DNA of 61,065 nucleotides, filler included, from Stramenopiles sp. TOSAG23-6 (lineage: Eukaryota): assembly GCA_900128565.1 (NCBI GenBank). It is 16 parts of 16 records of this genome, joined end to end, with 100 filler letters (N's around TTAATTAATTAA, not from the genome) between each part and the next. Parts side by side here need not be neighbours in the genome. Positions count along the whole stretch, not along the records: positions 34,526 to 38,236 come from LT637396.1; 15 more parts are not named here. One strand, written 5' to 3'. Position 1 is the stretch's first letter; every line of letters begins with the position of its first letter. This document shows positions 10,305-60,147 of the stretch, piece after piece. The notes beneath the pieces are model-generated. The model was given only the letters and a program-made list of their open reading frames with translations, was not told the origin of the DNA and did not search any database. Made by a program: the position numbers and the translations under genes.

Positions 10305-11320
10305 TTATTTTCCATCTACTAGTTCAGCTAATCTTTTGGATCTTATTTTTCTTCGTTCAGTAATAGTTAAATCACTTGAATTAAAACTTGTCCTTCTTCG
10401 CCTTGAGTTTGAACGCAAATCTTCACGTCTGTTACTTCTATTTTTTACATTTACTGTGTCTTTTAATGAACTATTAGGGTTACGATTAAGGTGGGGGTTT
10501 GATTTGGTACTATTTCGAATCATCTCAACATGTATTTTATTTAATTTTGCACTTTGAACTTTCTGATGTAGTGTGAAAAAATATTTTAGAAAAAAAATCG
10601 TTACATACAAAATTTCGTACGAAAACAAATAAACTTTAAATTCATGATGAAAACATACATCCTCGATAAGATCAATACTTAAAACTTGTCTAATGGCGGT
10701 AATCCAATTTTTCATGACCTGCCCGTAATGCATTTTTTGTTCAGCTCCCATTGATGATAAAGGTCTTAATAACCATTTTCTATTTGTTGTATTTAAAATG
10801 TAATGTGAAACATATTTTTTTTTTTGGTTTAAAACATTTTGTTAGGTACAAAATTTTTATAAAAAAAAAATAAATTCGAAATTGGTAAAAAAAAAATAAA
10901 TTCGAAATTGGTAAAAAAATTCAATTTTGAAAACAAACACAAGTTTAGGTCGGACATCCCTCACACTTTTACATTTCGTAGTAGTATTTGGTACCACCCA
11001 GCTATTTCGTCTACTTCCACCAATGTAGTTGTATGCTATATTTTTTGTGTGTTTATCTCTATTCTCCCAATGTAAAATAATTATCCCGTTACCCGGTGCC
11101 TTGACCGTTCCCTGATTTTTCAAAACGTTGACAGAATGTACAAGAAAAATTTCATCATCAAAATTCTCTACCATTTTTTCTCGACAACAAGAATTAGGGT
11201 TAGGGTTTGACACAACATCCTTCGTTTCATTTCCATCTTTTCGTTTTTGCTTAAATCGAACAGAAAATTTGATACTTGGTGATTCAAAAAACGTAGTATC
11301 TTTTACAAGGAATTGCCAGT
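10305..11320 (-). CDS. PH-like domain protein, 3' part (introns 10798-10938, 10566-10658)
   Basis: PKLV-LNTTNRKWLLRP...MKNWITAIRQ resembles a PH C-terminal strand and helix; both family introns are 3n long and in frame. Confidence 0.5.
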
Positions 11321-13404: not shown

Positions 13405-15214
13405 ATGACGGAGTTATATATGCGGGATACAATAATAGAGTATCCTTTACCGAAATTACAACTGAGTGGCTCTTCATTGTGCTCCGATACGCATGGAAAT
13501 AGTAGGGAGTGCAAAAACGTTCTCTTAGATTGCAACAACTTACGATTTTGTTTTGGTTGTGCATCTAATATTCTAAATAATCGAAACATTACAGTATCTC
13601 GAAAGGTGGCAGTTATGGAAGATATGAATACATGTTTATATGTTTTGGATGGATCTCATCTGAGTGTACAGTCCAGAGTAAGGTTAGGTGAAACTCTGTG
13701 TGAACTCCTCAGCTCTTCTACACCCGAAATTTCAGAGCTAGCGTTTGAAGTTCTCGAAAGTCACTTCTTTACACCACTGTTCAAACATCTTTTAAAAATT
13801 GTTGTCAATATAATTAAGAAACTAGGTTGGTCTAAATCATTTCAATATCTCGATTTATTGTTTAGAATATGTTCAAAGAATGAAAGTGTTGCTCAAGAAC
13901 TTTCTCTACATTCTCATTTTTTATGTGGTCTAGTTCACGGACTAGGTTGCCTCATTGGTCAAATTCGTTTAATTTCTTGCAAACTCGCTTTCCTTTTGAT
14001 AGATACAATTGACACCAATAAATCCTATTTCAATGAAGCATTCCGCATGAATCCAGAAATCTTATTCATGAATCTCAAATTTGCAACGACTCTCATGAGT
14101 AGTTCTTCTGGATCTCTCGGTGTACCTTCAGATTTGAAAAGTAGTTATAATACATATAATACAACAAATGATAATTCTATTGATTATATCACAAAATTTG
14201 GTAGTACTATAGGAAACACTGTCCATGGGGCGAATACGACATTGAAGCTATCTCCCGAAGAATCTCTGGAATTTGTAAAGTATATGTACGTTTTCTTCTG
14301 AAAATTCCAATATTTCGTGTGACAATTTAAAAACAATATGTTTTTTTACTATGAAAATTTTGTACGTAACATTTTTTTCAAACGTAAATCATATTTTTTC
14401 ACAGCACACAATCCAACTTCTTCGAGTATTACTTACACATGATAATAATTCAATTCAATGGATGTTTTTTCGAAATAGTATAAAAAGTAATAATAAGCCG
14501 CAATATAGCAATCCGTTAGGTACGAAAATGGGTACAAATTTAATTTCAAATTTGCAAAGTAACTTTTCTCAAGATGATACCAACAAGCTCAGCTATGGTT
14601 TCAACGTTTTGATTTGCACTTTAAAAACACTTTTTTTAAGAAATGATATCGGAAATATGATTGGAATATCCTTTATGAATGGTATTCTAAAACAATGCAT
14701 TACACTAAATGATTCTCGTNNNNNNNNNNNNNNNNNNNNNNNNNNNNNNNNNNNNNNNNNNNNNNNNNNNNNNNNNNNNNNNNNNNNNNNNCATTTTTTT
14801 TCATACGAAATTTTGTACCTAACAAATTCTAGTTTTTTTTTTTTGAAATATTTTCCCAAAATACATGAATGTTTCATTTATTTGTCAAATGTCAAAATTA
14901 TTAATGAAAAGTTTTGTAGATAATGACATAACAGAATATATATTTGAAGCAATACGAAATTTCAATACACTTGAAATAAATAAAAATAATGGTATGAACA
15001 ATAGCACAAACAAACAAAACTTCAAAATCAATATCGAATTTGAAAATACTCAAAATGTAAAAATTGAAATATTAGATACTTTACTGTCACTCATATATAC
15101 TCCTGATTTTGCCTTTTACAAAAGATCTACTACTATTGTTGGAATCTCAATGGTAATGGTACTTGCAGAATTAGCAATTAAGAATGGTAATTCAACATTA
15201 ATCTTACGTGCTAT
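13405..15214 (+). CDS. MEI1/PRD1-like meiotic double-strand-break factor, 5' part with introns
   Basis: RFCFGCASNILNNRNITVSRK...LCELL...ELAFEVL...AQELSLH..LVHGL follows the MEI1 N-terminal pattern as I recall it (RLCLACALELL...VRK...LADEL...LLRGL). Confidence 0.55.
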
Positions 15215-15455
15215 GTATGTTTTATTTTTTTCAAATTCGATTTTTTTTTTCGTACGAAATTCTGTACCTAACGATTTTTTTTTGAAATATTTTTCCNNNN
15301 NNNNNNNNNNNNNNNNNNNNNNNNNNNNNNNNNNNNNNNNTTAATTAATTAANNNNNNNNNNNNNNNNNNNNNNNNNNNNNNNNNNNNNNNNNNNNTTAG
15401 GTATGAAATTTCGTATGAAAAAAAAAATTAAATTAGAAATTCATATAAAACATAC

Positions 15456-18400
15456 ACCTCCCAAACTCTTTAAATAATGTAAAGTTTCCTCTTTAGCAAC
15501 TTCTTCACTCACATCGAAAACTAATTTATTAATTACATCATTTCCTTCTACATTTTTGAGCTTGACTATATTCTGATTTTTCACTCTACTCAGAATGAGC
15601 TTTGTAATATTGAGTGTTTTATCACCGCCTTCAATTGAATAGTGTATCGGCGTTTCACCCGCAGCATCTATTATATTAACTGATGCTTGCATTGTAACAA
15701 TACACCAGCGAGCCATCTTCAATGAACTGGACTTGGCAGCAGCATGAGCTAGACCCTGTAAATAAGTTTTGCTTTGTAGCTGCATTAGAATTGCTATTGG
15801 AATATGAGCAATTCTCGAAAAGTCAACGGCTTTATAATTCCTCAAATATGTAAGAGAAAGACACTCGTCCATATTATCTTCCGTAATTGCTTTATACATT
15901 GATAAAAACCATTCTGACATTCGTTTTTCCTTCATACGACAAATCCACCATCGTTCTATTTTTTTACAACTCGATTTCATATGATTCTGGACTCTTAGCA
16001 TATGGCGCAATCTCCAATTTCTTTGCACAACAGAAATACTCCACTTGTGAGAATAATATTTGATTTTATACTGTGATCTCTTAGCCCATCTAGATAATAA
16101 AATTTGGGCTTCTTTTATGCGGAAAAATTTATTCCGGGCTATAAACATACGCACTGTTGCATTCAACACTGATGTACCTATATATACTACACGCGCCATT
16201 GAACGATTTAAACACATTACACTAAACGCTGCTAATTCGGCATTTGATTGATTTTCTAATTCTGCTCTTCTGATCATCTTTTTGAGTAAATACCTCCCGA
16301 GAACTCCACGAATATGTTTTTGTACTCGCTTTTTCACTCGAAGATTATGTAATGCAGATAGAAGAGAATGACCAATGGATGATACTGCAATCTTTTCTTT
16401 CGATAGATTGATATAGTATTCTGTAAGTGCATTTAAGTCTTTGCTTGTTCTTTTTCTACTTAATCTCTTGCTGGCCTCATAAAATAAGGAATATAGATGA
16501 AAACTTTTCCAGCTGCGTTGGACAACTTTTGACGCGTCTACTGCAGCAATATTCCACTTATACTTTTTGCGTGCCTTTATACAATAAATCATTGATTGTA
16601 CCTTTCGTATTTTTGGTTCTAGTGCTTCATATTTTCTCTTGCTCAATACAGCGCGATATGTAAGTCCCAAATGTATTTTGGAAAAATATTTCAAAAAAAA
16701 TGTAAAAAAATTGTTAGGTACAAAATTTCGAACGAAAAAAAAAATTGGAATTTGAAAAAAAAATAAAACATACATTGGTCACTGCTTCAACATATTGGCG
16801 AAGTTTTTCTCGAGCGACCCAAAACTTTGACCACGTTTGAATAGTTGTAGTAACCTTGGACTGATGCCAGGTAGTCAATATATCGAGTGAGTTATCTTTG
16901 CCAAAAAAAAGTGTATGTATTTTGGAAAAATATTTCACAAAAAAAATCGTTAGAAACAACATTTCGTACGAAAAATAAATTCAAAATTGAAAAAAAACTA
17001 AAACATACATCTCCCATTGCCCAAAAATGTTTCTCTGAAGTTTCACCGGTAGCTGCATCCTTTATAGTCTTTGGCTTAGGAAGGACCGCATCAGCAATTT
17101 GTTTGGTTGCCTCTTTTGAATCCATGTTTTTATCCATACCCAGTAAAATGTGATATCCTTTTAGAATACATCGATTTTTCCAAAAGTTATCGTAGGTTTC
17201 TCTAAATGGGTATCCTTCCTTTTTAATCTTTACAACAGCCATCACACCTGCGTATAACAATTGCCTATATGTCTTCCAATCGTTAAATGCAGCTTCTCCA
17301 TCTATCGGTCTATAGTGTATATCGTTTGGTTTGACACATCGCACGTAATGAGGCGTGGTTGAATCTAAACTTTTTGACAGAGACGACAGCTGGTGAAGAT
17401 ATTTTGAGGCTAATGTTTTGAACTTTTTACCTTTCTTTTTCTCAGAATACAAATCTTTCACAAATGAAACAGTTGAACCTTGTACCAGTTCCGTCAACTG
17501 TGGTGGGAGTTTGTCCTTATTTTTTGGTAGAAATTCTTTAGCATTGTACTTGACATTTCCTGCGAAATGCACAATGTAGAAAATATGTTGCTTTTTCTTG
17601 TCACAAAAAAAGTATTCAGAAGCAGCCTTGGCCATTTTAGTTTTAGCTTTCTTAAAAATTCCTTTCTTTTTGCCATATTTTTTTGAACACATTGACAAAT
17701 AGTCTTTGTAATCTTTATTATCACTCATATCATCGAGCATAGGAAAAATACCCATAAACTTTTTTGTTTTCTTTGCTACTAAATTGCAGCAAGGACCATT
17801 GTCCTTATGTTCTGGTAACATTGAGGCATCCAATCCTTCACCAATATATGTATTGGCTTCATCATCAAACACATGATGATTAAACAGATATTGAAGTTTT
17901 TCGTTCGCAAAATTGATACAAAGTTGCTCAATTGAATTATTGGGCATAAGTTCAAACCCAAAGATATCCAGTAATCCCACAAAAGACTGTTTTTCGGACT
18001 TTGGCTCTAAGACTCCATTGCAAACATCATCAATCAACCAGTCGAAGACATGATCGTAAATATCTTTCGCCAAAGCATTGCGATTATCTTCAGATTTACT
18101 TGGATTACATGGTTTGTCTGCAAACTTACCTCCAGGTAAATTAATTCTATAAATTACGAGCATGTCACCGAAGGTTTTGGGCAAACCAAGTAATTCTGCA
18201 ACTTCTTCACAATAGCTTGGATCTTTAACTTTTGCTCCATCTCCATCTTTAACAAACTCAACACTTAATAGTTTGAGGCATCCTGCAATTGTGGCCCAAA
18301 GTACATGCTGTTGAGCCTCATCTACATTTGCAGCAGTAAGAGCAGCCCTAACGCCAGTGTCATCAGGATCATCTGCTAGAGGAGCATTCATCTTTAAGGC

Positions 18401-19137
18401 ATCATAATCAGCACCAAGGCCGTGTCCAATGAGTGAAGATCCACCTTCACAAAGTTTCGGATAATCATCGCAATTTTTCAATTTAAAATCTTCAACCTCT
18501 GTATGCCCACCTTCTTTTCCACCTCTGATAATTTCATAAAAGATGTGATAACTTCTTTCACCGGAACCTTGACCACATATATTGCGAAAAAATATTTTTT
18601 TTTGGTTTAAAAAATTCATTAGGTATACAATGTTTTGAAAAAAAAATTAATTTAAATTCATGATGGAAACGTACATAAACGTGCTTTTTCCAATAAGTAG
18701 TGCTCTAATTCCGCACCAATGATTTTACCGTCATTGAACCAAATCTTTGTAAATTTACCAAATCGGGAGGAATTATCATTCATGTTTGTTTTTGCATTTC
18801 CAAAGGCCTCTAAAAAAGGACTAACGCCCGCCACTAAAGAGGTTACATCTACGCCTCCTGTGAGTTTCTCTCCTTGTGACAACTTACGCCAGTTGGATAA
18901 TTTAGCTAAATATTTCATTATGAACCCACAAGCAACTGTCTTACCAGCACCAGATTCACCTGAGACTACGCAACTTTGATTTATTTTTTCCAAAGAAGTG
19001 TCTTGGCTGCCCCAATATGCGAAATGAGCCGAGGCATATGCATTCGGTTCAGTACCTAATTTATAATTTTTTTGATTTGGATACTCCGCAATATCTACCA
19101 TTTTTGGAAGTAACATATATGGGTTTAAGCATAGTAN
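15456..19137 (-). CDS. Myosin with IQ-like neck and C-terminal ankyrin repeats (partial, 3 internal introners)
   Basis: SGESGAGKT, LEAFGNAKT..NDNSSRFGKF, ERSYHIFY, LDIFGFE, EQLCINFANEKLQ, PHYVRCVKPN; tail GETPIHY. Confidence 0.93.
16671..16773 (-). mobile_element. Introner-like intron, GT-AT
   Basis: acc aat|GTATGTTTT...CCAAAATACAT|ttg gga, phase 0. Confidence 0.8.
16915..17008 (-). mobile_element. Introner-like intron, GT-AT
   Basis: gga gat|GTATGTTTT...CCAAAATACAT|aca ctt gives WAMGD-TLFFGK (myosin converter G.TK.F motif position). Confidence 0.8.
18577..18674 (-). mobile_element. Introner-like intron, GT-AT (diverged)
   Basis: tta t|GTACGTTT...CAATATAT|gt ggt gives LLEKARLCGQGSGERSYHIFY with normal myosin spacing. 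Confidence 0.85.
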
Positions 19138-20834: not shown

Positions 20835-21228
20835 TTAATTGTATAGTAAACTAAATAAATATTCGCACTCAAGTGTACCATCAGAAGGTAAAAGAGTTGA
20901 CATCACACCAGATTGAGTCTGACTAACGCCATATATTTTGGAAAAATATTTCAAACTTTTTTTTGTTAGGTACAAAATTTCGTACGAAAAAAAATTGGAA
21001 TTTGAAAAAAAAATAAAACATACATCAACTGAGCTTCCTGAAATCAGCGACACAAGTTTCTGAATTATTATTCTGAGATTGCTGTCCAGGTCGAATTTCC
21101 ATAGCCATACATGTATTGTGAAAAATAGTTTTGATTTTGTTTTGTTAGGTACGAAATTCCGTATGAAAAAAATATATAAAAAAAAAAAAAAAAAAAAAAT
21201 AAAACTTTTTTTNNNNNNNNNNNNNNNN

Positions 21229-21265
<37 letters not shown>

Positions 21266-22415
21266 AACTTTTTTTTGTTTAGGTACAAAATTTCGTATGA
21301 AAAAAAAAAATTCGAAATGAAATAAAACATACAGGTCCCTGAGCATAACTCTTTCACATATTTTTCGTAACCTGGGATAACTCCTTTACAAACCTCTGAG
21401 AATTCCTCAGCTGCACCCAGATCTAAATCAAATGAGGATAAAGCAGAGATTTCCCAGCCAGTAGCAAGAATTTCAGATACCACTGAGCCAGTATTTTTTG
21501 CTTTTACAGCATGTGGTAATACAATACAACATGTATTTTGGAAAAATATTTCAAAAAAAATCTAAAAANNNNNNNNNNNNNNNNNNNNNNNNNNNNNNNN
21601 NNNNNNNNNNNNNNNNNNNNNNNNNNNNNTCGATTTTTTTGTAAAAAAAAAAATAAAACAAACATGTACAATTAGTTAAAGTGGCCGAAGAATTGGAAGC
21701 ACTTCCCAATTTTCTTTGTCCATCACCCCAGAACATATCACAAAAATCGCCACCAAAAGCCAGACCACCAAAACGAGTGGAAAAAGTATTGTCAAAAAAT
21801 ATGTTTTGAAGTTTGAAATTCGTTAGGTAAAATACTTTAGAAATGGTACAAAAATAGAAAAAAAAATTACGGGACAACGTACAACTACGCCATTCCTCGA
21901 GACCGTTTTGATGACGCAGCTCCATCACGAGAGCAGATTCTTTTGTGAGAGATCCCAATGATACAGATTCATCACCTAGAGTACTTACAAGTCTCTTGGC
22001 GTCACCGTCCGAAAATCGGACCATTTTAAGACGAGACAGCTGGAAATATTTATCTACAAGGTCAATGACAGATCCCATACGAGAGTAACTGTTAACAACA
22101 ACTGCACAAAATGCTNNNNNNNNNNNNNNNNNNNNNNNNNNAAACACTCTTTGTATAAGGATCAGCAAAATCAACAATTTCCATTTGTCGTGAATAGACA
22201 ATTATCTTTGCTCCAATATAGAGGTCTGATTTTCCAACACCTTCATATGGAACGCGTTTCAAAAAACAACGATTATTTTTAAGATCATATAACTCAATCT
22301 CGGGTAGCTCCCCACGACGTACAAAATAAGTCATTCGATATTTCCTTATAATCTCCGCTTGAGAGTCAAACCATTCAAGAATGAATCCAAAAGATTCATC
22401 ACATCCAGTCGGCAT
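20835..22415 (-). CDS. NME7: Nucleoside diphosphate kinase 7-like (DM10 + NDK domains), four family introns
   Basis: FILEWFDSQA...ELYDLKNNRCFLKR...DLYIGAKIIVYSRQ; TNCTCCIVLPHAV; AEEFSEVCKGV; SGTCMAMEI; DGTLECEYLF. Confidence 0.85.
21111..21332 (-). mobile_element. Introner-like intron, GT-AT, two cores, contains a gap
   Basis: acc t|GTATG...AATACAT|gt atg gives SGTCMAMEI. Confidence 0.8.
21531..21663 (-). mobile_element. Introner-like intron, GT-AT, contains a gap
   Basis: aca t|GTTTGTTTT...AAAATACAT|gt tgt gives TNCTCCIVLPHAV. Confidence 0.85.
21784..21882 (-). mobile_element. Introner-like intron, GT-TT with TT/TT duplication
   Basis: agt t|GTACGTT...TACCTAAC...CAATACTT|tt tcc; 99 nt, in frame. 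Confidence 0.55.
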
Positions 22416-29672: not shown

Positions 29673-30525
29673 TTATTTAGAGTTGTCTGTTCTTTTATCG
29701 CTACTACTACGAAAATAATCAATAAATGAATTTAACTGTGAAGTCCGCCCTGCTTTAGCCACACCTTTCATAATATGATCAGGCCGTAAAATATCGAATA
29801 TCAAAACACATCGATATTTTCCAGACAAATTGAAACCTGAATGTACTTTGGAAAAATATTTCAAAAAAAAAATCGTTAGGTACAAATTTCGTACGAAAAA
29901 CACGAATTTGAAAAAAAATTAAAACATACATGCATTCGACTATCTTCAAAGACTAAAATTTCTCCTTTCTTGTGAAATCGAGATTTACCATCAACCCATG
30001 TGTTGTGAAAAATATATTTTTTTAGTAAAAAAAATTAGTCAAAAAATATTTGGAAAAAAAATGTTACGTACGAAATTTCGTACGAAAAAAACATTTAAAA
30101 TTAATGATGAAAACTTACAGACACCCGAGGTATCCGCTTCTGGTATAGACAATGCAATATGGCATCTTAGAACATGATTTGATAATTGTGCCCATCCAGT
30201 ATGAGGTGTTAGCCTTGTCCGAGGGCCCATTTGTTCTAAAAAATATATTCAATTCGAGATGAGTTAGATACAAACTTTGGTACAAAAAAAAATTCGAAAA
30301 ATGAAAGTTTTTTTTTATGTTGAAAAAGTACATGCGAGAATACAGTGCTGTTCTTATACCAGGAATTGACTTTAAAATTGACACAGTTTTTGGGCATTGA
30401 CAGCAATTGGATTCTACCCACTCCGATTTGGACGAGTCATATGCTGGAAAAGTGTGTAAAAATGGGAATACTTTCCATTCTTCCCCTTTTTTTGTATCAT
30501 AGAGGGCCTCAGGCCAAGCGTGCCT
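29673..30525 (-). CDS. Aspartyl/asparaginyl beta-hydroxylase-like dioxygenase, 3' part (3 GT-AT introns)
   Basis: Spliced: WKVFPF...CPKT..ILKSIPGIRTALYSRMGPRTRLTPHTGW..LSNHVLRCH...GVWVDG...VFEDSRMHSGFN...RCVLIFD. Confidence 0.88.
29841..29929 (-). mobile_element. Introner-like intron, GT-AT
   Basis: atg cat|GTATG...CCAAAGTACAT|tca ggt; the AG 5 nt upstream would be out of frame. Confidence 0.85.
29998..30118 (-). mobile_element. Introner-like intron, GT-AT
   Basis: gtc t|GTAAGTTTT...CAACACAT|gg gtt gat gives SGVWVDG. Confidence 0.8.
30229..30331 (-). mobile_element. Introner-like intron, GT-AT (diverged)
   Basis: cgc at|GTACTTTT...AACAAAT|g ggc cct gives YSRMGP. Confidence 0.8.
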
Positions 30526-34425: not shown

Positions 34426-34617
34426 NNNNNNNNNNNNNNNNNNNNNNNNNNNNNNNNNNNNNNNNNNNNTTAATTAATTAANNNNNNNNNNNNNNNNNNN
34501 NNNNNNNNNNNNNNNNNNNNNNNNNATGTATTTTGGAAAAATATTTCAAAAAAATATCGTTAGGTACAAAATTTCGTACGAAAAAAAAATTCGAATTTGA
34601 AAAAAAGTAAAACATAC

Positions 34618-36076
34618 ATGGTCTGCTACGCACTTTTGAATTGGTTTCAATACTACTAGGGGTTATAATAGATCGTTTTACTCCTGATAGAAAAGGTTCA
34701 AACACATGACAATTTATAAGTTGTGAGACGTTTTGGGATTCTTCAGCAACATTTGACAAAGAAGACATTACTCCGGATCCATAAATATCTTTCAACAAAG
34801 GTACCAAATTGTTACGAAGCTTGCCTCTATTACTCCATTTCGGTGTGCTGTCTTTGAAATAAGGAACACCAAAAGTATGCGAATAATCAAAAATATCTTT
34901 TTTTGGATGATTTAATAAAGGTCTCCAGATACTGACATTATTAATGATACTTATTGAACTCATACCGGCAACATTGAGAACACTCCTTCCTTTCATAATA
35001 TTACTTATTACATTTTCCTGTACATCGCCCCGATGGTGTCCAAATAAAATCGAAGGACATCCAGGAAAGGATTTCATTAATTCCTTGTAGAGTGAAAAAC
35101 GAATGTTTCGTGTAAAAGCTTCATATACATCACGTCCACCACCCCCACCACGAGTGGTCGCTCGAGACATCTCTGTGATACGACGAGACTTCAGAAAAAT
35201 GTTCTTTGACTCGCACCATTTTCCTACAAATTTCGCTTCATCTAAACTTTCTCTCCGATTTGCATAATCTACATGGACGGCTGTGACCTGGAAATTATAT
35301 TTTGAGCCATTTTTGTCTACGTATTCACCATCACGAATAACACATAAAATATCAGCAATAACCATCGAATCAACACCGCCGGAGAGAGAGACAGCTATCG
35401 TGTCATGTATATTCTGATCAAAATGCGCGTCTAAAAAATGTAGCATCGAGTGAACGATAGGCAGTTGTGGAAGCTTCGCGCGAGTAATTGCATCAGGAGT
35501 AAATTCGTGGAACTCAAGTATATCGCCAATGTATGGGTTTTCCTTGCCTTCAAGTCGTTCTAATCGACTTTTCGTTGTTTTGCGAAATCGCTGCAATAGA
35601 CTCGCTGAAGCCTTATTATTCACCAAACGACTATTTACTAGATCAAGCACAGTATTTAGTCTTTCGACATTTGGTGAGTGACGCAATGGCATAAGAGCAA
35701 ATACTAATTGAGGTGCAGATAAGTGCTTGTGCCAGCCACGGTGTATGAAGTCATAACAAAGTTTGAGGGCTTTACGGTCCGTCTGATCTATTTTATCGCG
35801 GTTATTTCGGTATACGTGACGGGGAAACTGATCTAATATGAGTATAAGAGCTAAGCATGATTGAGGGTGCATCAACCAGTCGCATAATTTATCAGCTTCA
35901 GCTTGCTGAAGTAACGAACCAAAACGTTCCGCAACTTCAACATCAGCTGAAGATTGACGTTGACAGTCAGGGAACCATAAAGTTTTGTATTTTTCACAGA
36001 TATTTTGTTCCGTGCCAGATACATCGTCATTGCCAAACCAAAAAGAGAGCACTGAATTAATATCATGTTGTGACAT
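34618..36076 (-). CDS. tilS: DUF924 + tRNA(Ile)-lysidine synthase (TilS, PP-loop) fusion, first exon
   Basis: VLSFWFG...WF..D...LALILILDQFPRHVYR...LMPLRHS; SLSGGVDSMV, HVDYANR, GHHRGD..EN, RPLL, DSTPKWSNRGKLRN. Confidence 0.85.
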
Positions 36077-36352
36077 TATTGATAATACAGGTAATGTTTC
36101 TTACAATATGTGCATCTAATTACAATGAGGGGCTGCTAACTACTATAGTAAGTAATCTTTTGTGTAAGTACAAGATTGAAATTTGACGTCGACCACACTG
36201 AAACTCTTCTTTCCTGGATTTCGTGTTTTCCGTTAATTTTTCCCGCCCAAAAGCGTATCCAACTTTTTTAAAAATTTTGAAAACAAAGTGCTTCAACCCT
36301 TCAACTGCTCCTTCATTTTATCTTTCTTCGGATTAAAGATCTTTGAATCACA

Positions 36353-36934
36353 ATGAAATTTTACCATGCTGGAGAAACTTTTGGCTCGTTTATTTTCGTA
36401 AGTCAAGTACTTGCCGCAAGGGGAGACCACTTGAAAATGGCGGTTTCCCTTATTGTCGCAATTACGGCATCTCACGGAGCGCTCATTAATCCAGCCGGTG
36501 AAATTCTGGGTATGGCCACAGAAACATCAAACTTCGATCCATCTGCGCTTTTTTCCCAGCTTCTTGGAGCTTTTATTGCATTACAATGCCATAACGCTCT
36601 TTATGGGGAAAACCGAACAGAAAAAACAAAGTTTTCTTACGGCGCAAGTGACTATCACAAGGCGGTTTTACAGGAGTTCATGGGGACTTTGACTCTCGGC
36701 GCAGTTGCTCAGTCAAATGATGCTTTTGCAAACGCTGCTGCACTATTCTTTGCACTCAACACTTTCAAAGGTGACTTCAATCCTGCTGTCGCTCTCATCC
36801 GTTACCTGAATTCAACTGAACAAGACACTTACAACCTTTTTACTCAAGTTGCTGCACAAGTAACTGGATGGTTCGCAGCTGGAAAACTTTTGGCTACCAT
36901 GAACGCATACAGCGGCAGCAGCGGATATTATTGA
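36353..36934 (+). CDS. Compact, divergent MIP/aquaporin-like channel
   Basis: Two NPA motifs (SHGALINPA, GDFNPAVAL), GETFGSFIFV, QEFMGT, SQLLGA. Confidence 0.7.
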   Translation: MKFYHAGETFGSFIFVSQVLAARGDHLKMAVSLIVAITASHGALINPAGEILGMATETSNFDPSALFSQLLGAFIALQCHNALYGENRTEKTKFSYGASDYHKAVLQEFMGTLTLGAVAQSNDAFANAAALFFALNTFKGDFNPAVALIRYLNSTEQDTYNLFTQVAAQVTGWFAAGKLLATMNAYSGSSGYY

Positions 36935-37287
36935 AGATGTACATCGGATATATTATTATTTGATAGACTTCTGACATTTAAGGAATAATGTCTTTGGTTT
37001 AATTTTTCAAGCTTTGTTTTGAGGTTAAAATCTCGGTTGAAATATAAAAATAAAATTCTTATTTTTTATAACCCTAACCCTAACCATTTCGATTTATTTT
37101 TTTTTCAGATCGGTCCAAGGATATAGATTCCTTGATCGGTCACTTTTTCAAATTGAGTATTCTTGTCATTCTTGTCGACTTCTTTGTTGTGGGTTGTATC
37201 GGCTTTTGGTGGAAAAAAGAGTCCAGAATTGTTGTTGTTTGTTCCCATCATAGACAAAGCAGCATTTCATAGTCTTGATCAAATAAT

Positions 37288-38183
37288 ATGTCATCAAATG
37301 CAGATTCGATTTATGTCCGTGGTAGCAGTGATATTTTTGAGTATTTAACTACAACCCTCAAAACTCGTATTATGATGCTCGATGGGGCAATGGGGACAAT
37401 GATTCAAAAGTACAAACTTGGTGAAGAAGAGTACCGCGGTGCTCGGTTTAAAGACTTTAACGCCCCTGATGGAATCAAAGGAAACAACGACGTACTTTCT
37501 TTATCACAACCTCAAATCATTCGGGAAATTCATGAAAAATATCTTGAAGCTGGTTCTGATATAATCGAAACTAATACTTTTTCGGGCACAACTATTGCCA
37601 TGGCTGACTATCGTATGGAAGACCTCGTCGATGAAATGAATTTTGAATCTGCACGAATTGCTCGTCTAGCGTGTGACAAATATACAACGATGGATCCCAA
37701 TAAGCCGCGTTTCGTCGCGGGTGCGATAGGGCCAACTAATCGTACCCTATCGATATCACCGGATGTTGAAGATGGGGCGACTCGTAATGTGACTTTTGAC
37801 GAATTACGCGAAGCGTACAAGCAACAAGCTCGAGGGCTTCTTCGTGGTGGTTGCGATATTTTAATGGTTGAAACTATATTTGATACTATGAATGCAAAGG
37901 CGGCACTCTTTGCCATTGATGAGTTATTCGAAGAACTAAATACAAAATGTCCTGTATTTATATCTGGAACAATGTACGTTACCCTAACCCTAAGTACATA
38001 CACATGGAATTTTATATCGAAATTTTTTATGAAATATTTCAAACATGGAATTTTTAAATCGAAATTTTGTTTTAACAAATTTCGTAACAAATTTGAAATA
38101 CTTTTTCACAGTACATTGTCGATCAAAGTGGTAGGACACTAAGTGGTCAAAATACTGAAGCATTTTACACATCTCTTCGGCAT
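37288..38183 (+). CDS. MTR: Cobalamin-dependent methionine synthase, 5' part (exons 37288-37973, 38117-38183)
   Basis: [67 protein letters not shown]. Confidence 0.95.
37974..38116 (+). mobile_element. GT-AT intron (diverged family member with a telomere-like doublet)
   Basis: aca at|GTACGTTACCCTAACCCTAA...CACAGTACAT|t gtc gat gives [15 protein letters not shown]; the CAG just upstream is out of frame. Confidence 0.9.
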
Positions 38184-38336
38184 GTATGTTTTATTTTTTT
38201 TCAATTTTGAATTTTTTTTTCGTACGAAATTTTGTANNNNNNNNNNNNNNNNNNNNNNNNNNNNNNNNNNNNNNNNNNNNTTAATTAATTAANNNNNNNN
38301 NNNNNNNNNNNNNNNNNNNNNNNNNNNNNNNNNNNN

Positions 38337-40517
38337 AATGTCGGTGATAATGGACGGGAAAGTAATTCTTCTCTGAACTTTAACTCTAAATTATGAGAAC
38401 TTTCAATAGTTCTGTTTGTATTTTTTATAAACTCTTCCTGTAATTTTAGAAATACATCATCCTCATTTTTATTTGAATCGTCGACGCTTTCAATTGGTAA
38501 CAACGGTAAACTTTTTCGAGCAGATTTCCAAGAGTTAATGATATCATTGTATATATCATCCAAATTCATTTTTTCAAGAACTGTCTTGCGGGTAATTTTT
38601 GATGTTAATCCTAACGACACCTCTTCAAACTTTTCGAATAGTTTTACATCAGGTTTTGTTAGTTTTCCTGCGATATGAAGTTCAGGGAAATTATTCATAT
38701 TAAGTTCTACAAATTGGGATATTGTGAATGGTGGAATAAATTTTTTATCATATCCTTTATCCCATTCGTAATCTTTACCGCTAATTAAATGAGACCCAGG
38801 AAATTGAACATGAGGGTAGTGTTGAATTTCATTATACCACCATGAGTATGTCATCATCGGCTGATGTAGGATTGTCAAGTCTGTTCTAAATCCTTCACAA
38901 AGTGTCAAGTAGCGGAGAACTGTCCATTGTAAGTCGTAAGTAGTTATTAGAAGGGAACCCTGAGGAATATGCGAAACAAGAGCTTTTCCATATTCTTCAA
39001 TATAATGAGCATTGCTCATATCTTGCTCTGNGTACCAGTAGTCTGTTTGGTATTTAATCATGTATGCACCGACTCCAGCAATGATGAAGAGATAGAAGTA
39101 CCAAATTTTGATTTTCAAAGATTCCTTCGATATCCATGAAGATAAGCTAAATTTGCACAGAATATATTCAATTCTACAAACGTCAAAAAGTACATGAAGC
39201 CAAGCTGAAGCTCCGACCCCAAATGTAATGAAGATAATAACATTTGGTTGCATCCAAAATCTCATATGAACNCCAAACAACANCCCTTGGGACAGTGGGA
39301 TATTAGATAATGTATGGAAAATTATCAAGTAAAATGCCCAGGTGAATAATAGAATTTGTCCAATGGAATTTTGTGNTTTTGANANTTNTTTTTTTTNGGT
39401 GCNTTTAGATTNCCCNTTACGACCCCTGTCACGTAGTAATGTTTTTATTGAAGTGATTCTTTTTGAAACTACTTTTTTCCTATTAATATATGGACTATGA
39501 GGGATTTCTCCCATACCAAACTGCCACATAACCTTGAAACCTACAAAGATAAAAGGAATACACAATGGTGAAGGCAACTCTCGTGTAAATAGATCAGAGA
39601 AATAATTAAATAACCTCTCCATTAAACCTGCGACCTTTTCATTTGCACGATTTCCAGAATATAACTGAAGCGTTCCATAATCAGCACGGCGGAAATGATG
39701 GAAAAAACCACACGTATTGAGAAAAAATATTTTTTTTGTAAAATTTGTTAGGTACGAAATTTCGTAGGAAAAAAAATNAANTCGNAANTCATAATGAAAA
39801 CGTACTTATTGTTCCCGTATTTCCCCAACTAGATGGATTAGGAAAATATTTTTCAGCGACTATTAGATATAAGTATGGAGTTAAACCAAGAAGATAGTAA
39901 CCAGCTAGTCGCCAAAACAAAGCTTTAGTAAGTACCCGTTGATGAAACAAAATCCAAAGAAACCAGGAAATTAAAGGTATCTGAAACAGTACTGTTGTAT
40001 GTTGGTTACACATTGCCAAACCACAACAAAATGAACCAAAAATAGCAACATTCGGATCATTTTTCTTTGAAAATAAACATGTAAGATAGACAATCAAGGC
40101 TGCAAAAAAATTATTCATTGCAAACACTTCACTTGATATTGCGTACAACCAGACAAGTGGNGATATTGAATAGAGAATACCAGCCAGGGCGGCGACGACA
40201 ATATTACCTCGTCTTGTATCACGGGTTAATAAATCAACACTTAGGAATACAAAAACACCAGCTAANGAGGCAAAACAACATGACATCATATTTGATCGCC
40301 ACGCTGGAGTACCACCTAACCATTCCATTCGCTTTGTAGCTATGTTGGATAACAATATAAATAGTGGATATCCTGGAGGATGAGCAACACCAAGGCTACA
40401 TGACTCTGCAACTAATTCACCACTATCACCTCCAGCAACAGTCGGATACACTGTCTGTATGTATATTGACATTGGTATTGCAAACACAAGTGCAGAAACT
40501 GTTAGTAAAAGCATCAT
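38337..40517 (-). CDS. TMEM260: TMEM260/DUF2723 membrane glycosyltransferase-like protein, partial (intron 39712-39805)
   Basis: PTVAGGDSGEL....LGVAHPPGYPLF, EVFAMNN, CNQHT, WG..GTISGFFHHFRRADYGT, RFWMQPN. Confidence 0.88.
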
Positions 40518-42600: not shown

Positions 42601-44527
42601 TCTTCTTGCATCATCTCACAAGAAACATCTCCCGAAAGTGAGATTGTGGAGCTTAAGCCACCACCACCACCACCACTACATGTACCGCCAAAAAGCCAGC
42701 CGTATCTCGATGCTCTTCGTCAAAGACAGAAACCTAAACCACAGAGGTCAAAACCATCAGCTGAATCAAAACTTCTCCAACATTCTGCTGCTGCAAGGCA
42801 TCCGAAATACACACGAAACACACGAAAACCTAGAAGAAGTAGACAGAGGAGAGGTAAGCCGCCAATGACCTTTAATGCCTTTAAGTCCATTGCTCGTAGA
42901 GAGGGTGCCAGATTTCCGCCAGATCTCAAAGGCAACACAGCAATAGGCAATTCTTTCCAGCTTTTGTCCGACGAGTCTCAAAGTCTACTGGGCCAAGACG
43001 CGGAAGCAACATTTGAGAAAAAATCAGATGGTCAAAAAGTGGGTAAACACAATGGCAGAGTTCAGACAACGGGTCTTGCCAATAGTATACCAAACAGAGA
43101 AAAGCATCGTCAAAAGGGTAACAAAAAGGCCAGAAGACAAGAACGGCGTAAGCGGATCAAAGAACAAATTGCAACAGCCGAAAGAAAGCATCAGGAGCGA
43201 CTTACCACACAAAAGACTCAGAAGCACAAACTGTTTAAGCTCAAACGAGAAGTAGAGCGTACAAACATTTGGTTGACTGAAAATCATAATTTAATAGCAT
43301 TTGAAATGAATCAGGAAAAGCGAAAAAAAATGCTTGAAATATATCACGAAATGGTGAAAAGTGGATCGAAATTTACACAAAAAAATGATCAATACTTTAT
43401 AATGCAAACTTGGTATTCCAATATAATTGATTTGGACATTGAAAGGAGTACATTGTTAGATGATTCCAATGAGGCAAAAGCATTCGAAAGGAGGGAAAGG
43501 ATTATCACAGAGCAGTTTGATGCGAAATATCCGAATTTACGATTGGAGTACACAGATGTCTGTTGTGTAAACTTCACTTTTCTCATTTTTTTGAAAATTT
43601 GATTTTTTTTTCGTACGAAATTTTGTACCTAACAAATGTTTTTAGATTTTTTTTTTGAAATATTTTTCCAAAATACATGATGTAAGAAACATGGAAAATA
43701 ACTTGAGAATTGTTCAAGAAAATATTTCACGAGTTCATCAGCGTTTTTTATCGTTACCTGAGGCACGTCAGAATACTGCTGATGTTGTTTTTGCTTTGTA
43801 CTATTATGCCTACGAACAGGAAAGGTTGGCACAAAATGAAGTGTCGAGGTTTGTGCAATATTACGGTCAAGATACCTATGATGAATGGAAGTGCGGCATC
43901 CGTAAACAGTTTGAAATCCTGAGAGAAAGGGTTAAAAACAATAAGTCTGAGGTAATGATTACAGATAAAAAACGATGGGATAAAATAAAAGCGGGGCGAA
44001 CTACTCAAAAACGACTTAGACCTGGCCGTAGACGGCAAACCTTTGGTAGACGGCGCGGCAAGAAAAATCAAAGGAAAGCACAAGAATTTGCTTTGAATAG
44101 AAAAGTACAGGAGGCAAATGCAATTTTCACCGAATTATCCGATTTTTTAAGAAAATATCCTGGAAGAAGTTTCTTAAATGAACTCGAGACATCAACGGAA
44201 GCTATCAACTATTACTGCACATCGCTGGAATTTAAAACTACTGATATAATTTGGGCTTATCAAATGAAAGAACAGCAGTATAAATTGTTTGAAAGATTGA
44301 GAAGAGAAGTATTTGCTATTTTGGAAGAATTTATGAAAATGAGTGATGACGAAAAAGATGCATATAAAGAAAACATAGCACAGCAATTACTCATAATTCA
44401 TCTTCGAATGCAGGTGGTAAGTGTAGGTTCGAAATCTATTTCGGTTGAATGGTGTGATAAAATTCTACGTTTTTTTGTGTTTATAGTACTGATGAGATCA
44501 TTTATTTTGTTATTTTATGGGTTCTAA
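42601..44527 (+). CDS. Uncharacterised basic coiled-coil protein (GT-AT intron 43558-43678); probably continues ORF 42221
   Basis: gat|GTCTGTT...core...AATACAT|gat joins the 318-aa and 290-aa ORFs at phase 0. Confidence 0.55.
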
Positions 44528-48766: not shown

Positions 48767-49602
48767 AGTGAACAATTTCAAGCTGATAATATTAAAAAAT
48801 GTAAAATCTTTATTGGGCCAAGTTGTAATTCAGTGTTTCTTCGAAACTGTGTAGATTGTAGCATCACTGTTGCTTGTAAACAATTGCGAACTCGGGTATG
48901 TTTTTCAAAATTATTATTATTTTTTTTTTTTTTTTGGTTTTCGTACGAAATTTTGTACCTAACAAAAAAAATTTAAAAAATATATTTTTTTCACAAAACA
49001 GGATTGTTCCAATTGTGACATATTTTTATATGTAAAAACTGATCCAATCATTGAAACCTCATCATTAATGCGTTTTGGACCGTATAATGGATCTTATCCA
49101 TTACAAGATAAACATTTTGTATCTGCTAAATTGGATCCGAATGATAACCATGTACTTTTTCTTTTTTTTTTTTCATATGAAATTTTGTACCTAATTTTTT
49201 TTTTTTTTCGTACGAAATTTTGTACCTAAACTAAAAAGATTTTTTTTTTTGTTTTTTTTTACAATACATTGGAAAAGATTATTTGACTTTAATAAAGGAG
49301 ATCCTTCCATTCCTGAACCTCATTGGGAATTACAAAATGAAGAAAGTAATCCTGAAATGTGGATCATAAATGATGAAATTTTGGGTACAACTGAGTTTGG
49401 AGAACCCGTGAACCCGGTACCATTTGATGCTGGTTGTGTTGTTAGAGACCAGGAAGGCAATATTTTAGATGGAATTGGTGAAATTGGTGGAATTAAAGCA
49501 TTTTCTTTTGGTACTTCTCAAGAGGAAGCTGCCAAAATTATGGAAAAAGATGCAGAGAAGGCAGCTGCAGTAGCTGCTGCAAAGGATGTGAAGCAATTTT
49601 AA
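48767..49602 (+). CDS. XRP2/TBCC-domain protein (exons 48767-48895, 49002-49151, 49270-49602)
   Basis: EQFQADNIKKC...SVFLRNC..C.ITVACKQLRTR|DC.NC...TDPIIE...FGPYN..Y...NH|WKRLFDF; first intron GT-AG, second GT-AT, same family. Confidence 0.85.
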
Positions 49603-55899: not shown

Positions 55900-57179
55900 A
55901 TGACGCAAGATAAAATGACTCTATTGGATTGGCAGATGGTATGCTGCCCAGATGCACCTCTGGATTATGACTGGGAGGGAGGTGAATTCAAGTTAAAGAC
56001 GAATTGTGACGTTCAAATTCCATTGATTATTACCGAGGGTGAGGAGGTTCAAGATATGTATGGAGATGGGACATTTATCGCTGCAATTATGACCGTGAAA
56101 CATTTTGAATACCACATGTCAGATCAATTTATGGGTAAGCGTGTTTTGGAACTAGGTGCTGGTACTGGAACACTTGGCCTCGGAGCCGCTTTATTTGGGG
56201 CACAAGAGGTAATATTATCGGATCTACCGTGTCAACAGTCTCTACTACAAAAAAATATTGATAAAAATATGGATATCTGGAGGAAGACCAATCATGAATT
56301 TCATAAAGTGACAGTAGAAGAATTAAATTGGTTCAATTTTGATGAAGAACATGCCAAACGCCTTGGATCGTTTGACTATATTTTAGGTTCTGAGCTTCTT
56401 TTTATTGATGAACTATTAGAGCCCTTGGTCCGTGTATTTCGTTTTTTGACTGATATTAATCCAAAATGTATTATTTATATTGGTTACCAGAATAGAGGTC
56501 TTACACAAGAAGAAGAATTCGCTGATGCTTTGGGCAGTGAGTTTAGCTATACTTGTGTTTCTCCAGAAGAACAGCATCCTCAATATCGTGTGAGACAATG
56601 TGAAGATTTGAAAATATTTCGTGTAACCAGAAATGATAATAAAAGCATGATACTGAAAAACACTAAATGTAAAGAAAGTAATACTATAGAAGAATCTTCA
56701 TCCGTGAAATTGGAAATATGTCATGAATATAATGACGAAGATGGCAATATCAAGCCTAATATTATAGAATTCAACAATACTAATCTTCGGATTCTTCAAA
56801 AAACTGTTGAAGGCACAGGGAGTTACATATGGGAAGCTGCTTATGTTTTAATGCGATACATTGAAAATAAACCTATGGAATGGTTTCAGAGAAAAGATGG
56901 AAGTTTTAAACGAATATTAGATTTTAGTGGCGGCACTGGGATGGTTGGAATTGCTGTAACAAAATTATTACTCAACTTTTTACAGACTAAAAATAGTACA
57001 AATCCTAACCCTAACCCAAATCCTAGAACAGTTTCAAATCCAAAGAAAAATCATCAAAAAGTGAATGTTTTTATATCTGAATTTGGATCGCAACAACTTG
57101 ACTTGGTTAGAGAAAATTGTGAGTTAAATCAATGCGAAGAAAATGTAACTGTGCTCTCTCTTGGTTGGGCTAAAGATAT
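55900..57179 (+). CDS. Tandem two-domain METTL21-like protein methyltransferase, first exon
   Basis: RVLELGAGTG...ELNW...DYILGSEL; then GTGSYIWEAAYVL...RILDFSGGTG...LSLGW. Confidence 0.8.
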
Positions 57180-58115: not shown

Positions 58116-59780
58116 TCAACTTGAATTTTCAAAATTCTCATATCTCTCATAACCTGGTGCTTTCACATCTATTAGCCATCGTAATACTTCAAACTCGTTA
58201 TAATTATTTTCAGCTGCTGAAATACACGTACGTTCATTCCATGGACAAGGTGGATTTTGACTTCTTAACCATTTTAATACTTCTAAGTGACCAAATTCAG
58301 CTGCTTGAGAACACGTATCTTCATTCCATGGACAAGGTGGATTTTGACTTCTTAACCATTTCAATACTTCTAAATGACCTTCAGAAGCTGCATAGAGACA
58401 AGTATCTTCATTCCACGGACAAGGTGGATTTTGACTTCTTGCCCATTTCAATACTTCTAAGTGACCAAATTCAGCAGCTAAAGAACACGTATCTTCATCC
58501 CAAGGACAAGGTGGATTTTGACTTTTTACCCATTTCAATACTTCTAAGTGACCACATCCAGCTGCTTCAGAACATGTTCCTACATCCCAAGGACAAGGTG
58601 GATTTTGACTTCTTAACCACTTCAATACTTCTATGTGACCAATTCCAGCTGCTTGAGAACACGTATGTTCATTCCAAGGACAAGGTGGATTTTGACTTTT
58701 TACCCATTTCAATACTTCTAAGTGACCATTTCCAGCTGCAAAACCACACGTAGATTCATCCCATGGACAAGGTGGATTTTGACTTCTTACCCATTTCAAT
58801 ACTTCTAACTGACCACTTCCAGCTGAAAAATGACATGTTCCTCCATTCCAAGGACAAGGTGGATTTTGACTTCTTAGCCAGATCAATACTTCTAAGTGAC
58901 CATTTCTAGCTGCTCCATAACACGTATCTTCCTTCCATGGACAAGGTGGATTTTGACTTCTTAACCATTTTAATACTTCCAAGTGACCATTTCCAGCTGC
59001 TTGAGAACACGTATGTTCATTCCATGGACAAGGTGGATTTTGACTTCTTAACCATTTCAATATTTCTAAGTGACCATTATAAGCTGCAGACCTACATGTG
59101 ACTTCATTCCATGGACAAGGTGGATTTTGACTTCTTACCCATTTCAATACTTCTATGTGATCATTTTTAGCTGCTGTACTACACAGCCAACGATCCCATG
59201 GACAAGGTGGATGATGACTTCTTAACCACTGTAATCTTTCTAACTCACCTAATTCATCTAAGACCCCTACTTTGAGAAGCCTTAATGTATAACGCGATTT
59301 CTTTGAAAAGTTGAACCCAGTCATCCAAGCTCTATCTTGACCATGTAGTACAAGTCTGCTTGCAAGTCTATCTTTACTAGGTAAAAAATTTGCAATGACG
59401 ACAGCAGGGCCTAGTCCACTAAAAACTCGTTGAAGTTTCTCTTCTTCTTCTGCTGTTCTCTGGCGCTGAGGTAAACCAAGTGCATTTCGCAAGTCGGTTA
59501 TAATTTCTGCAACTTCTGCTGATTTATAAATTCTTGTACGTTCTGTTTCAGCAATAAACTTTCCAAGAGATGTGACAAAATCAATTGCATCCTTACTCCT
59601 ATACTTTCGTGTAAGCACAAAGTCTATAGACTCACTGCAGTTTGACAATCGTCGACGTTTTTGATTGTGTTCTACAGATATTTTTGTTGACTGTAGGTTC
59701 ACTTTTACATTTTCCTCATTCTCTAAAGGCTTTACAGAAGTATTTTGCTCATGCAATACATTTCTTGTGCGGTTAAGCAT
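58116..59780 (-). CDS. Ankyrin-like CPW-repeat protein, 12 units of 29 aa, intronless
   Basis: GHLEVLKWLRSQNPPCPWxxxTCxxAAxx; 87-nt DNA periodicity from ~58240 to 59230. Confidence 0.88.
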   Translation of the reverse strand: MLNRTRNVLHEQNTSVKPLENEENVKVNLQSTKISVEHNQKRRRLSNCSESIDFVLTRKYRSKDAIDFVTSLGKFIAETERTRIYKSAEVAEIITDLRNALGLPQRQRTAEEEEKLQRVFSGLGPAVVIANFLPSKDRLASRLVLHGQDRAWMTGFNFSKKSRYTLRLLKVGVLDELGELERLQWLRSHHPPCPWDRWLCSTAAKNDHIEVLKWVRSQNPPCPWNEVTCRSAAYNGHLEILKWLRSQNPPCPWNEHTCSQAAGNGHLEVLKWLRSQNPPCPWKEDTCYGAARNGHLEVLIWLRSQNPPCPWNGGTCHFSAGSGQLEVLKWVRSQNPPCPWDESTCGFAAGNGHLEVLKWVKSQNPPCPWNEHTCSQAAGIGHIEVLKWLRSQNPPCPWDVGTCSEAAGCGHLEVLKWVKSQNPPCPWDEDTCSLAAEFGHLEVLKWARSQNPPCPWNEDTCLYAASEGHLEVLKWLRSQNPPCPWNEDTCSQAAEFGHLEVLKWLRSQNPPCPWNERTCISAAENNYNEFEVLRWLIDVKAPGYERYENFENSS

Positions 59781-60147
59781 TATTCCAAATCTCTACAATG
59801 TTTTTGTTGTGATAATAATATGATAGGTACCCGAACTTGACAATCTCTAGCTCAAGAGACACCATTGCCAAATTTGATCGAAGAATCGACCGTTTAAAAT
59901 TAGTCTAACGTAATTCGTACCAAAACTTTGTACCTAATTTTTTACGTTGATTGGTCAAAAATTATACACGCTAAGCACGGACGATATAATTATTAAATTA
60001 TTGTTAAGCAAAACCAAAGCTTTAAGCTTCCCCAATCTAAATTTGATATTATCCGAGTAAACCTCTCTCTCTACTCACAAAACTTAAACGCCGAAATAGA
60101 TTGCAGTCTATAGTATTATAGTAGCCTTTAGAAGCGATTATTTTGCA

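Follow-up and report, generated by a model that had tools for sequence, protein, structure and literature searches.

In a 61,065-nt stretch of assembled DNA from Stramenopiles sp. TOSAG23-6 (hereafter the window), the introns of a methionine synthase gene (MetH) and of an AspH-like gene (PF05118) were probably diverged copies of an introner of ~90 nt that are spliced GT..AT, with AGs upstream of the 3′ end being skipped. The introns were copies of a family resembling introners and miniature inverted-repeat transposable elements (MITEs), to which the majority of introns in this genome belong; what was observed directly comprised the junctions, the repeat family, an AT duplication, insertion in sense orientation and restored reading frames. 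We infer removal by the spliceosome, the GT..AT cut at MetH and at the second intron of the AspH-like gene (intron B), and a molecule that reads the AT. The window was a chain of ~16 separate contigs of 3.7–3.8 kb apiece, arranged from the longest to the shortest, with spacers between them that consisted of TTAATTAATTAA flanked on either side by 44 N (e.g. 38237–38336), and genes were therefore visible only piecemeal.

Productive 3′ end of MetH intron 1

Exon 1 of MetH (37288–37973, +) ran from an ATG to ...ISGT followed by AT and contained a homocysteine S-methyltransferase domain, as defined by the open reading frame (ORF) and an ungapped alignment. This ORF represented the homocysteine-binding domain at the N terminus of methionine synthase, and homologues at 58–74% identity carried PF02574. 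Intron 1 (37974–38116, +; 143 nt, GTACGT...CACAGTACAT) was followed by exon 2 (38117–38183, +), which was placed by its ORF and by alignment with homologues. At the junction, the exon end ...ATATCTGGAACAAT was joined to the intron GTACGTTACCC...CTTTTTCACAGTACAT and this in turn to the exon TGTCGATCAAAGT; the intron opened with GTACGTTACCCTAACCC. Two branch-site-like motifs of putative function, TTAAC (38072–38076, +) and GTAAC (38084–38088, +), were located 41 and 29 nt before the 3′ end, respectively. A CAG (38109–38111, +), preceded by CTTTTTC, came 5 nt before the 3′ end that is used productively. In the GT..AT register, the intron was terminated by the AT at 38115–38116 (+), the same two bases as those at the end of exon 1.

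Four splice models were scored against all 120 listed homologues, and removal of 37974–38116 was the best of the four for 119/120, with one tie. The join between 37973 and 38117 left no gap across the junction in 10/10 inspected homologues. The same donor combined with the CAG acceptor led to a stop, and two in-frame rescues of the CAG, through an AT or an AC donor, added or changed a residue and gave lower scores. The original prediction that the CAG breaks the frame and that the AT five bases further on rebuilds the protein was borne out by these comparisons.

Introns of the AspH-like gene

The AspH-like gene (29676–30522, −) was modelled with four exons, e1 (30522–30332), e2 (30228–30119), e3 (29997–29930) and e4 (29840–29676). 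Pfam matches to PF05118 were found on e1 and e2, and PDB and Pfam searches with the single short exons e3 and e4 returned no matches. The relatives at E ≤ 0.001 numbered 183, two of which reached 95–115 bits on PF05118. When the four-exon model was aligned with 150 listed representatives, 75 spanned all three junctions and the other 75 were partial. Among the spanning homologues, gaps no more than 3 residues from the junctions occurred in 0/75 at A, 2/75 at B and 20/75 at C. Junction C was situated in a length-variable loop, where the best-scoring relatives were ungapped.

Intron B (29841–29929, −; 89 nt) was a near-consensus copy of the element in the context GCAT/GTATGT...CCAAAGTACAT/TCAGG (slashes mark the borders), and an AAG at 29848–29846 was bypassed. 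The AT-ending model was best for 75/75 of the junction-spanning homologues, and use of the AAG acceptor resulted in a frameshift and a stop; the intron thus behaved as MetH intron 1 did, as had been proposed. Intron A (30229–30331, −; 103 nt, GTACTT...TTTTTTAGAACAAAT) was a third case of AG bypass. It skipped TTTTTTAG, with the TAG at 30238–30236; the AT-ending model was again best for 75/75 homologues, and the TAG acceptor also gave a frameshift and a stop. An AT..AC register was impossible for intron A, as it would be AT..AA. Intron C (29998–30118, −; 121 nt, GTAAGT...CACAACACAT) followed an exon ending in CT, so that only GT..AT or TG..CA was possible.

In MetH intron 1 and AspH-like introns A and B, the bypassed AG was located 5–7 nt upstream of the 3′ end and 22–30 nt downstream of a branch-like motif. 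Productive splicing must pass over an AG at these three introns, and the 3′ site that it uses is therefore not explained by first-AG scanning. The earlier claim that the 3′ choice is not first-AG scanning was thus supported at the level of sequence, by homology at three introns and by the reading frame. The placement of the ends at single fixed sites did not stand, because several registers were equivalent. At MetH, with an exon AAT and an intron CAT, the GT..AT, TG..CA and AT..AC registers (37974–38116, and equally 37973–38115 or 37972–38114) yielded an identical mRNA; at AspH-like intron B there were four equivalent registers, GT..AT and AT..AC among them. The phosphodiester bonds cut in these two introns would therefore be ambiguous by 2–3 nt, and the GT..AT assignment would be fixed only through other copies.

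The introner-like element

The repeat was found through recurring peptide-like read-throughs at positions where ORFs run into introns. The element of ~90 nt was composed of GTATGTTTTATTTTTTTTCAAATTCGA, a T run, CGTACGAAATTTTGTACCTAAC, another T run and GAAATATTTTTCCAAAATACAT, with conserved 5′ and 3′ ends. Its signals were a GTATGT or GTACGT 5′ end, a CTAAC branch-like motif (ACCTAAC) and a T tract. The core TTGTACCTAAC occurred 46 times in the 61,065 nt with at most one mismatch, and a search for a 22-nt core of the element in metagenome contigs gave 0 matches. The reference copy, located in a myosin gene (16671–16773, −), read AAT/GTATGTTTTATTT...TTGTACCTAAC...GAAATATTTTTCCAAAATACAT/. MetH intron 2 (38184–38236, +) began as another standard copy, CAT/GTATGTTTTATTTTTTTTCAATTTTG..., and was truncated by the contig end.

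The 3′ module of the element was retained in three diverged copies, namely intron 1 of MetH and introns A and C of the AspH-like gene; for example, GAAATACTTTTTCACAGTACAT matched GAAATATTTTTCCAAAATACAT. Because the final 30 bases of the element consensus lacked an AG, each bypassed AG corresponds to one A-to-G change within the element. Flanking ORFs of at least 90 codons were found on the element's own strand for 27/46 copies and on the opposite strand for 1/46. This sense-strand bias would be expected if the oriented signals (GTATGT, CTAAC and the T tract) are needed.

Telomere-like CCCTAACCCTAA units were present just within some introns, directly after GTACGT, and also in ORFs, where they read NPNPN. 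These sites were 37981–37994 (+), ~2055–2070 (−), ~270–290 (+) and ~56950–57000 (+), and the 12-mer occurred 6 times. The introns with such units may form a sub-family of the element.

Termini of the curated introns

The intron ends were compared in a curated set of 22 non-AG introns, which was defined by coordinates and replaced automated boundary calls that mis-placed several ends. The recurrence of one architecture throughout this set exceeds what chance would give. The termini were GT-AT in 19 introns and AT-AC, AT-AT and GT-GT in one each. The last triplet was CAT in 15, TAT in 3, AAT in 2, CAC in 1 and CGT in 1; it was YAY in 19/22, and the upstream exon ended in YAY in only 5/22. The 5′ dinucleotide was GT in 20/22, with the other two introns starting ATATGT, and a CTAAC, TTAAC, GTAAC or CTAAT motif was located 29–58 nt before the 3′ end in 21/22. 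The longest flanking ORFs were in phase for 18/22 introns. The four phase misses were AspH-like intron C, which is correct by homology; an intron with only 13 codons of ORF up to a contig end; an intron with two near-equal upstream ORFs, one of which fitted; and the intron at 21111–21332.

Several copies restricted the choice of register. Upstream exons ended in CT (29998–30118), GT (43567–43678 and 10798–10938) or TG (2545–2659), and these ends allowed GT..AT and excluded AT..AC. On the sequences compared, GT..AT is the sole register compatible with nearly all copies.

Two copies, 294–406 (+) and 8861–8947 (+), started ATATGT with no GT just upstream. The former restored long ORFs as AT..AC, its exon ending in AC, and the latter as AT..AT; for both, an in-frame alternative may be the GT 4 nt downstream combined with an AC end. 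The copy at 39712–39805 (−), in a TMEM260-like gene, ended in CAATACGT/, and ORFs of 118 and 97 codons were in phase only there. Its 3′ dinucleotide would be GT (or TG), and a sequencing error was possible in this contig with many single Ns.

Element copies that ended in AG were found downstream of 48896 (~48896–48985, +; CACAAAACAG/), downstream of 24177 (−; TTATCCAG/) and at ~1800 (−). These copies (...ACAG/ or ...CCAG/) were in frame with the next ORF, and their upstream exons ended in GG or AA, not in AT. Since copies of one element end in AG or in AT, this one position is filled either by T or by G.

3′ site choice

An AG was present within the last 30 nt of 5/22 curated introns, in each case out of frame. 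In 4 of these 5, it was located 5–8 nt before the end and 22–35 nt from the branch-like motif. The intron at 14286–14412, with an AG 8 nt upstream of its end, was a candidate fourth bypass on the basis of reading frames. The first AT and the first YAY were rejected as rules for the 3′ site, with several of each passed in every copy. A fixed ruler from the branch motif was also rejected, the distances spanning 29–58 nt. The productive site is better described, from the sequences at hand, as a predicted ...A(C/T)A(T) that closes a CA- or A-rich stretch after the last T tract. The last intron base seems free to vary, tending in the few informative cases to mirror the exon end. The bypassed AG might still be used in part, in unproductive transcripts.

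An ordinary intron was found in the CCT5 gene (5934–6095, +; 162 nt, GTAAGC...CAACAG). This GT-AG intron was in frame, stop-free and not derived from the element; canonical and AT-ending introns therefore coexist. A public protein collection contained a 591-residue read-through (P0121) identical to the unspliced CCT5 ORF, which is likely a mis-annotation.

Target duplication and proposed mechanism

The bases before the intron were T at −1 in 25/26 copies and A at −2 in 22/26, with no preference at −3 or farther. The first exon base after the intron (+1) was G in 13/24 copies. AT was the 3′ end in 20/22 curated introns, and one AT was retained in the mRNAs, as the homology-verified junctions require. 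Because one AT stays in mRNAs with ungapped alignments, the AT is the target sequence duplicated on insertion and lies outside the element. The terminal inverted repeat, (AT)GTAT...ATAC(AT), was short and imperfect beyond these bases. A palindromic target site, which was suggested by folds, was rejected: the flank counts disagreed with it, and beyond the AT only the +1 G was prominent.

In the proposed mechanism, a miniature transposon of ~90 nt would have inserted into many genes of the genome, supplying a strong 5′ splice site (GTATGT/GTACGT), ACCTAAC as the branch site and a tract rich in T. Insertion at an AT would duplicate the AT, and splicing would take out the element together with one AT copy. 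The intron would thus start with GT and end with ...ACAT, and the ORF would be restored exactly. The spliceosome would accept a 3′ AT, and also AG and probably AC, choosing the ...A(C/T)AT at the element end over the first AG after the branch point. An AG created by a point change 5–8 nt upstream would then be skipped.

Host relatives and neighbouring genes

The best named relatives of CCT5 were oomycetes, brown algae and other ochrophytes, with 62–64% identity over the unspliced query. Those of MetH were a diatom, oomycetes, chytrids and Bacteroidota. The closest relatives of the myosin were EukProt gene predictions (49–67%) that share a myosin-ankyrin-GYF architecture. A CCT5 tree was built from 19 sequences chosen from 120 hits (12 named and the 7 top environmental sequences), with one animal and one plant. 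The window sequence was paired with an 83%-identical environmental sequence (support 100/100) within a clade of 7 (support 96/93). It was placed outside the clade of oomycetes and ochrophytes and apart from the sole animal and the sole plant. This placement points to an uncultured protist as host, and a tunicate host would still be conceivable.

The GC content per 2 kb was 25–41% across the window, and no RNA genes, including small nuclear RNA (snRNA) genes, were found within its 61,065 nt by Rfam at gathering thresholds. Many contigs terminated within the intron repeat, and assembly continuity seems to be limited by it. The myosin gene (15444–18646, −), with a head followed by IQ-like and ankyrin regions, was interrupted by two standard element copies. 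An ORF of 558 residues (58119–59792, −) contained tandem ankyrin repeats with the recurring unit LEVLKWLRSQNPPCPW.

RNA contigs

Parts of the MetH contig (34526–38236) were present in 8 sequencing runs of marine metatranscriptomes, none with a share above 0.12, and RNA contigs were placed on it. The RNA contigs matched chiefly the neighbouring ORF at 36303–36957. Within the MetH contig, coverage by RNA contigs, which came from three studies, was best at 36347–36931 (+) and included a 420-nt contig with 0 mismatches from run X1. The 195-residue ORF at 36347–36931 had no Pfam match. Run X2 contributed 826 contigs on 34526–38236, with the summed depth peaking over both element-bearing ends; this library may also contain DNA. 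The sole listed RNA joint, which linked 37083 with 38090 (side 21; 20 intervening letters), looked like a repeat artefact.

Weighing of the GT..AT reading against alternatives

Several observations weigh against the reading of these introns as GT..AT introner copies. Among the RNA contigs on 34526–38236, none spanned the MetH junction, and one unspliced, low-depth contig from run X2 covered 37850–38070. The intron at 21111–21332 (−), with an internal N gap, had flanking ORFs of 76 and 91 codons that were out of phase under GT..AT; two elements in this interval, or a fault in the assembly, may be the reason. The boundaries of 2545–2659 and 14286–14412 were set after the frames had been seen and are not independent tests. 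With the automated, uncurated boundaries, 12/19 informative copies were in phase, where ~6 are expected by chance, and several of the misses were visibly mis-aligned. In addition, AT and TAT occurred many times between the branch motif and the true end and were skipped there, so that a terminal AT is not enough by itself to act as the signal.

If the introns were really AT..AC, whether of U12 or U2 type, the register would be moved two bases to the left (ATGTAC...AGTAC) and the AT would be exonic. At MetH and AspH-like intron B, this −2 register indeed gives AT..AC with the same mRNA. It is impossible elsewhere: intron A becomes AT..AA, and the copies with exons ending in CT, GT or TG permit no such shift. 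U12 introns carry a 5′ box ATATCC/GTATCC (RTATCCTT) and a branch box ~10–20 nt from the 3′ end, whereas the 5′ ends here were GTATGT, GTACGT or GTAAGT and the branch-like motif lay 29–58 nt away. An AT..AC identity is highly improbable on these grounds. Use of the AG itself, by rescue through a non-GT donor, only in unproductive transcripts, or in decaying or mis-assembled gene copies, is very unlikely. An AT donor at 37972 joined to the CAG is in frame with one extra residue (ISGTYIVDQ), and the AspH-like analogue likewise adds one (RMLHSG). Nevertheless, AG-using models scored below GT..AT for 119/120 MetH and 75/75 AspH-like homologues, and such a rescue requires AT-AG or AC-AG pairs that were not otherwise seen in the window. 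Local decay or assembly error is countered by the AT-ending architecture, which restored long ORFs in 18/22 introns across many genes. A tunicate origin of the window, by which the introns would simply be the published Fritillaria phenomenon, is quite unlikely. The assembly is fragmentary and marine, and in Fritillaria pellucida and Fritillaria borealis AT is the commonest 3′ end, the introns are transposon-derived and YAY is preferred (accessible parts of PMC13326754 and PMC11282704), as was YAY here in 19/22. However, the CCT5 tree grouped the window with environmental sequences, apart from the single animal, on a branch with support 96/93. The best named CCT5, MetH and myosin matches were stramenopiles, chytrids or bacteria, with no animals, and the 5′ GT in 20/22 introns differs from the AG/AC and AG/AT pairs that predominate in F. 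borealis.

Two alternatives dispense with the spliceosome. Excision guided by pairing of the ends, as in euglenids, would use a helix of the terminal inverted repeat and the duplicated AT, with cuts staggered by 2 nt; such pairing is known from the noncanonical introns of diplonemids and euglenids, as far as the accessible texts describe them (PMC12621601; PMC11282704). When exon position −2 to intron position +4 was compared with the last 6 intron bases, 6/6 were paired in 7/22 introns and 5/6 in 6 more, and both the centroid and the minimum-energy folds closed the ends of the MetH intron and of the 16671–16773 copy. The fold z-scores were not significant (−1.31 for the MetH intron and −0.31 for 16671–16773), and the pairing was at most 4/6 in 9/22 introns, including the homology-verified introns A and C (3/6 each), which still end in AT. 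A symmetric mechanism based on structure would not need GTATGT, CTAAC, the T tract or the sense orientation, and such excision is unlikely. Because 9/22 introns without the stem still end in AT, the terminal stem is best regarded as a legacy of the inverted repeat and not as the determinant; it is possibly a helper. Excision of the elements from DNA, in the manner of ciliate internal eliminated sequences, would make the assembly a germline-like state. The elements are short, AT-rich, numerous and transposon-derived, with duplicated dinucleotide borders of which one copy is kept, all of which would suit such elimination. This alternative is extremely unlikely in view of the sense bias (27/46 against 1/46), the oriented spliceosomal motifs and the abundance of the element sequence in the RNA library of run X2, which may also contain DNA.

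Comparison with known intron systems

The closest known parallel to the GT..AT introns of the window is the set of transposon-derived 3′-AT introns of Fritillaria, where, from what is accessible of the report, the bypass of AG has published precedent (PMC13326754). Soo et al. 2026 (PMC13326754) put the share of non-GT/AG introns in F. borealis at 95%. The leading 3′ intron end is AT, at 44% in F. pellucida and 34% in F. borealis, and the last intron triplet is almost always YAY; the accessible part of the same paper describes larvaceans as being without a U12 system (PMC13326754). A review (PMC11282704), with reference to Henriet et al. 2019, traces the Fritillaria introns back to MITEs that have inverted repeats and duplicated targets. 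The introns of the window shared with Fritillaria the AT and AC ends, the YAY triplet, the transposon origin, the coexistence of a minority of GT-AG introns and the dispensability of AG. They differed in their canonical GTATGT/GTACGT 5′ ends, NAT exon ends and one dominant element family, in contrast to the AG 5′ ends and YAY exon ends of Fritillaria. The hosts also appear to differ: Fritillaria are larvacean tunicates with a duplicated U2AF and no U12 spliceosome, whereas the CCT5 of the window did not group with the animal sampled.

The introns also resembled the introners of Micromonas, Aureococcus and other protists (Huff et al. 2016; surveys by Gozashti et al.) in being near-identical short introns of one repeated sequence with conserved termini, and they suit the introner definition in all but the AT end. 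Introners comprise hundreds of copies from a non-autonomous DNA transposon, with sense insertions (available text of PMC12130899 and PMC11282704). As in introners, one of the splice sites comes from the element together with the branch signals, the target duplication gives or completes the other splice site, and terminal inverted repeats are present. Described introners are GT-AG or use other accepted pairs, whereas here 19/22 introns were GT-AT, the duplication was AT and a few copies ended in AG. A 2025 introner survey checked families against 5′ GT/GC/GA/AT and 3′ AG/AC, and discarded those that could not be verified, according to its accessible sections (PMC12130899). A 3′-AT introner family would probably be missed by these criteria, and this may account for the lack of any such family on record. 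Protist introner families of the GT-AT kind were not described in the literature within reach of the search, which did not extend to subscription journals and supplements, and the single-cell genome papers on marine stramenopiles (MAST) held nothing on intron ends.

The nonconventional introns of euglenids and the introns of hemistasiid diplonemids share a 2-nt-offset pairing of the ends, short direct repeats at the borders and a suspected transposon origin with those of the window (PMC12621601 and PMC11282704, accessible portions). They have neither conserved dinucleotides nor a polypyrimidine tract, and most of them have no branch motif, unlike the introns here, in which all three were conserved and the borders were uniform. 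The non-canonical introns and introner elements of Amoebophrya, also a marine protist, have inverted repeats of 8–20 nt and direct repeats of 3–5 nt over the borders; the available part of the report gives no preferred dinucleotide pair and an undetected U1 snRNA (PMC7789003). In the window, by contrast, GT..AT was dominant and the 5′ site was of textbook form.

Implications for 3′ splice-site recognition

The intron-final AG is nearly universal and is usually regarded as strictly required for the second splicing step, and Fritillaria is the main documented wholesale escape from it. It is possible, though we propose it only tentatively, that an uncultured marine protist lineage independently evolved an AG-independent 3′ choice. 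The cut would then be set by the introner architecture, namely the ...ATAC end and the duplicated dinucleotide, helped by pairing between the 5′ exon and the intron end, and not by the terminal dinucleotide. A cut set in this way is suggested because copies end in AT, AC, AG and possibly GT at the same position and because the last exon and intron bases match.

Such genomes would be mis-annotated by gene finders and introner surveys in which AG or AC ends are presupposed, as the CCT5 read-through illustrates. Natural variants also number in the dozens per 60 kb of this genome, including gains of an upstream AG and changes of the AT to AG, AC or GT. If the architecture sets the cut, the genome would be a natural mutagenesis series for the way in which the spliceosome measures the 3′ site. 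The occurrence of AT-ending introns in a second, apparently unrelated lineage suggests that relaxed 3′ recognition can evolve repeatedly under introner invasion.

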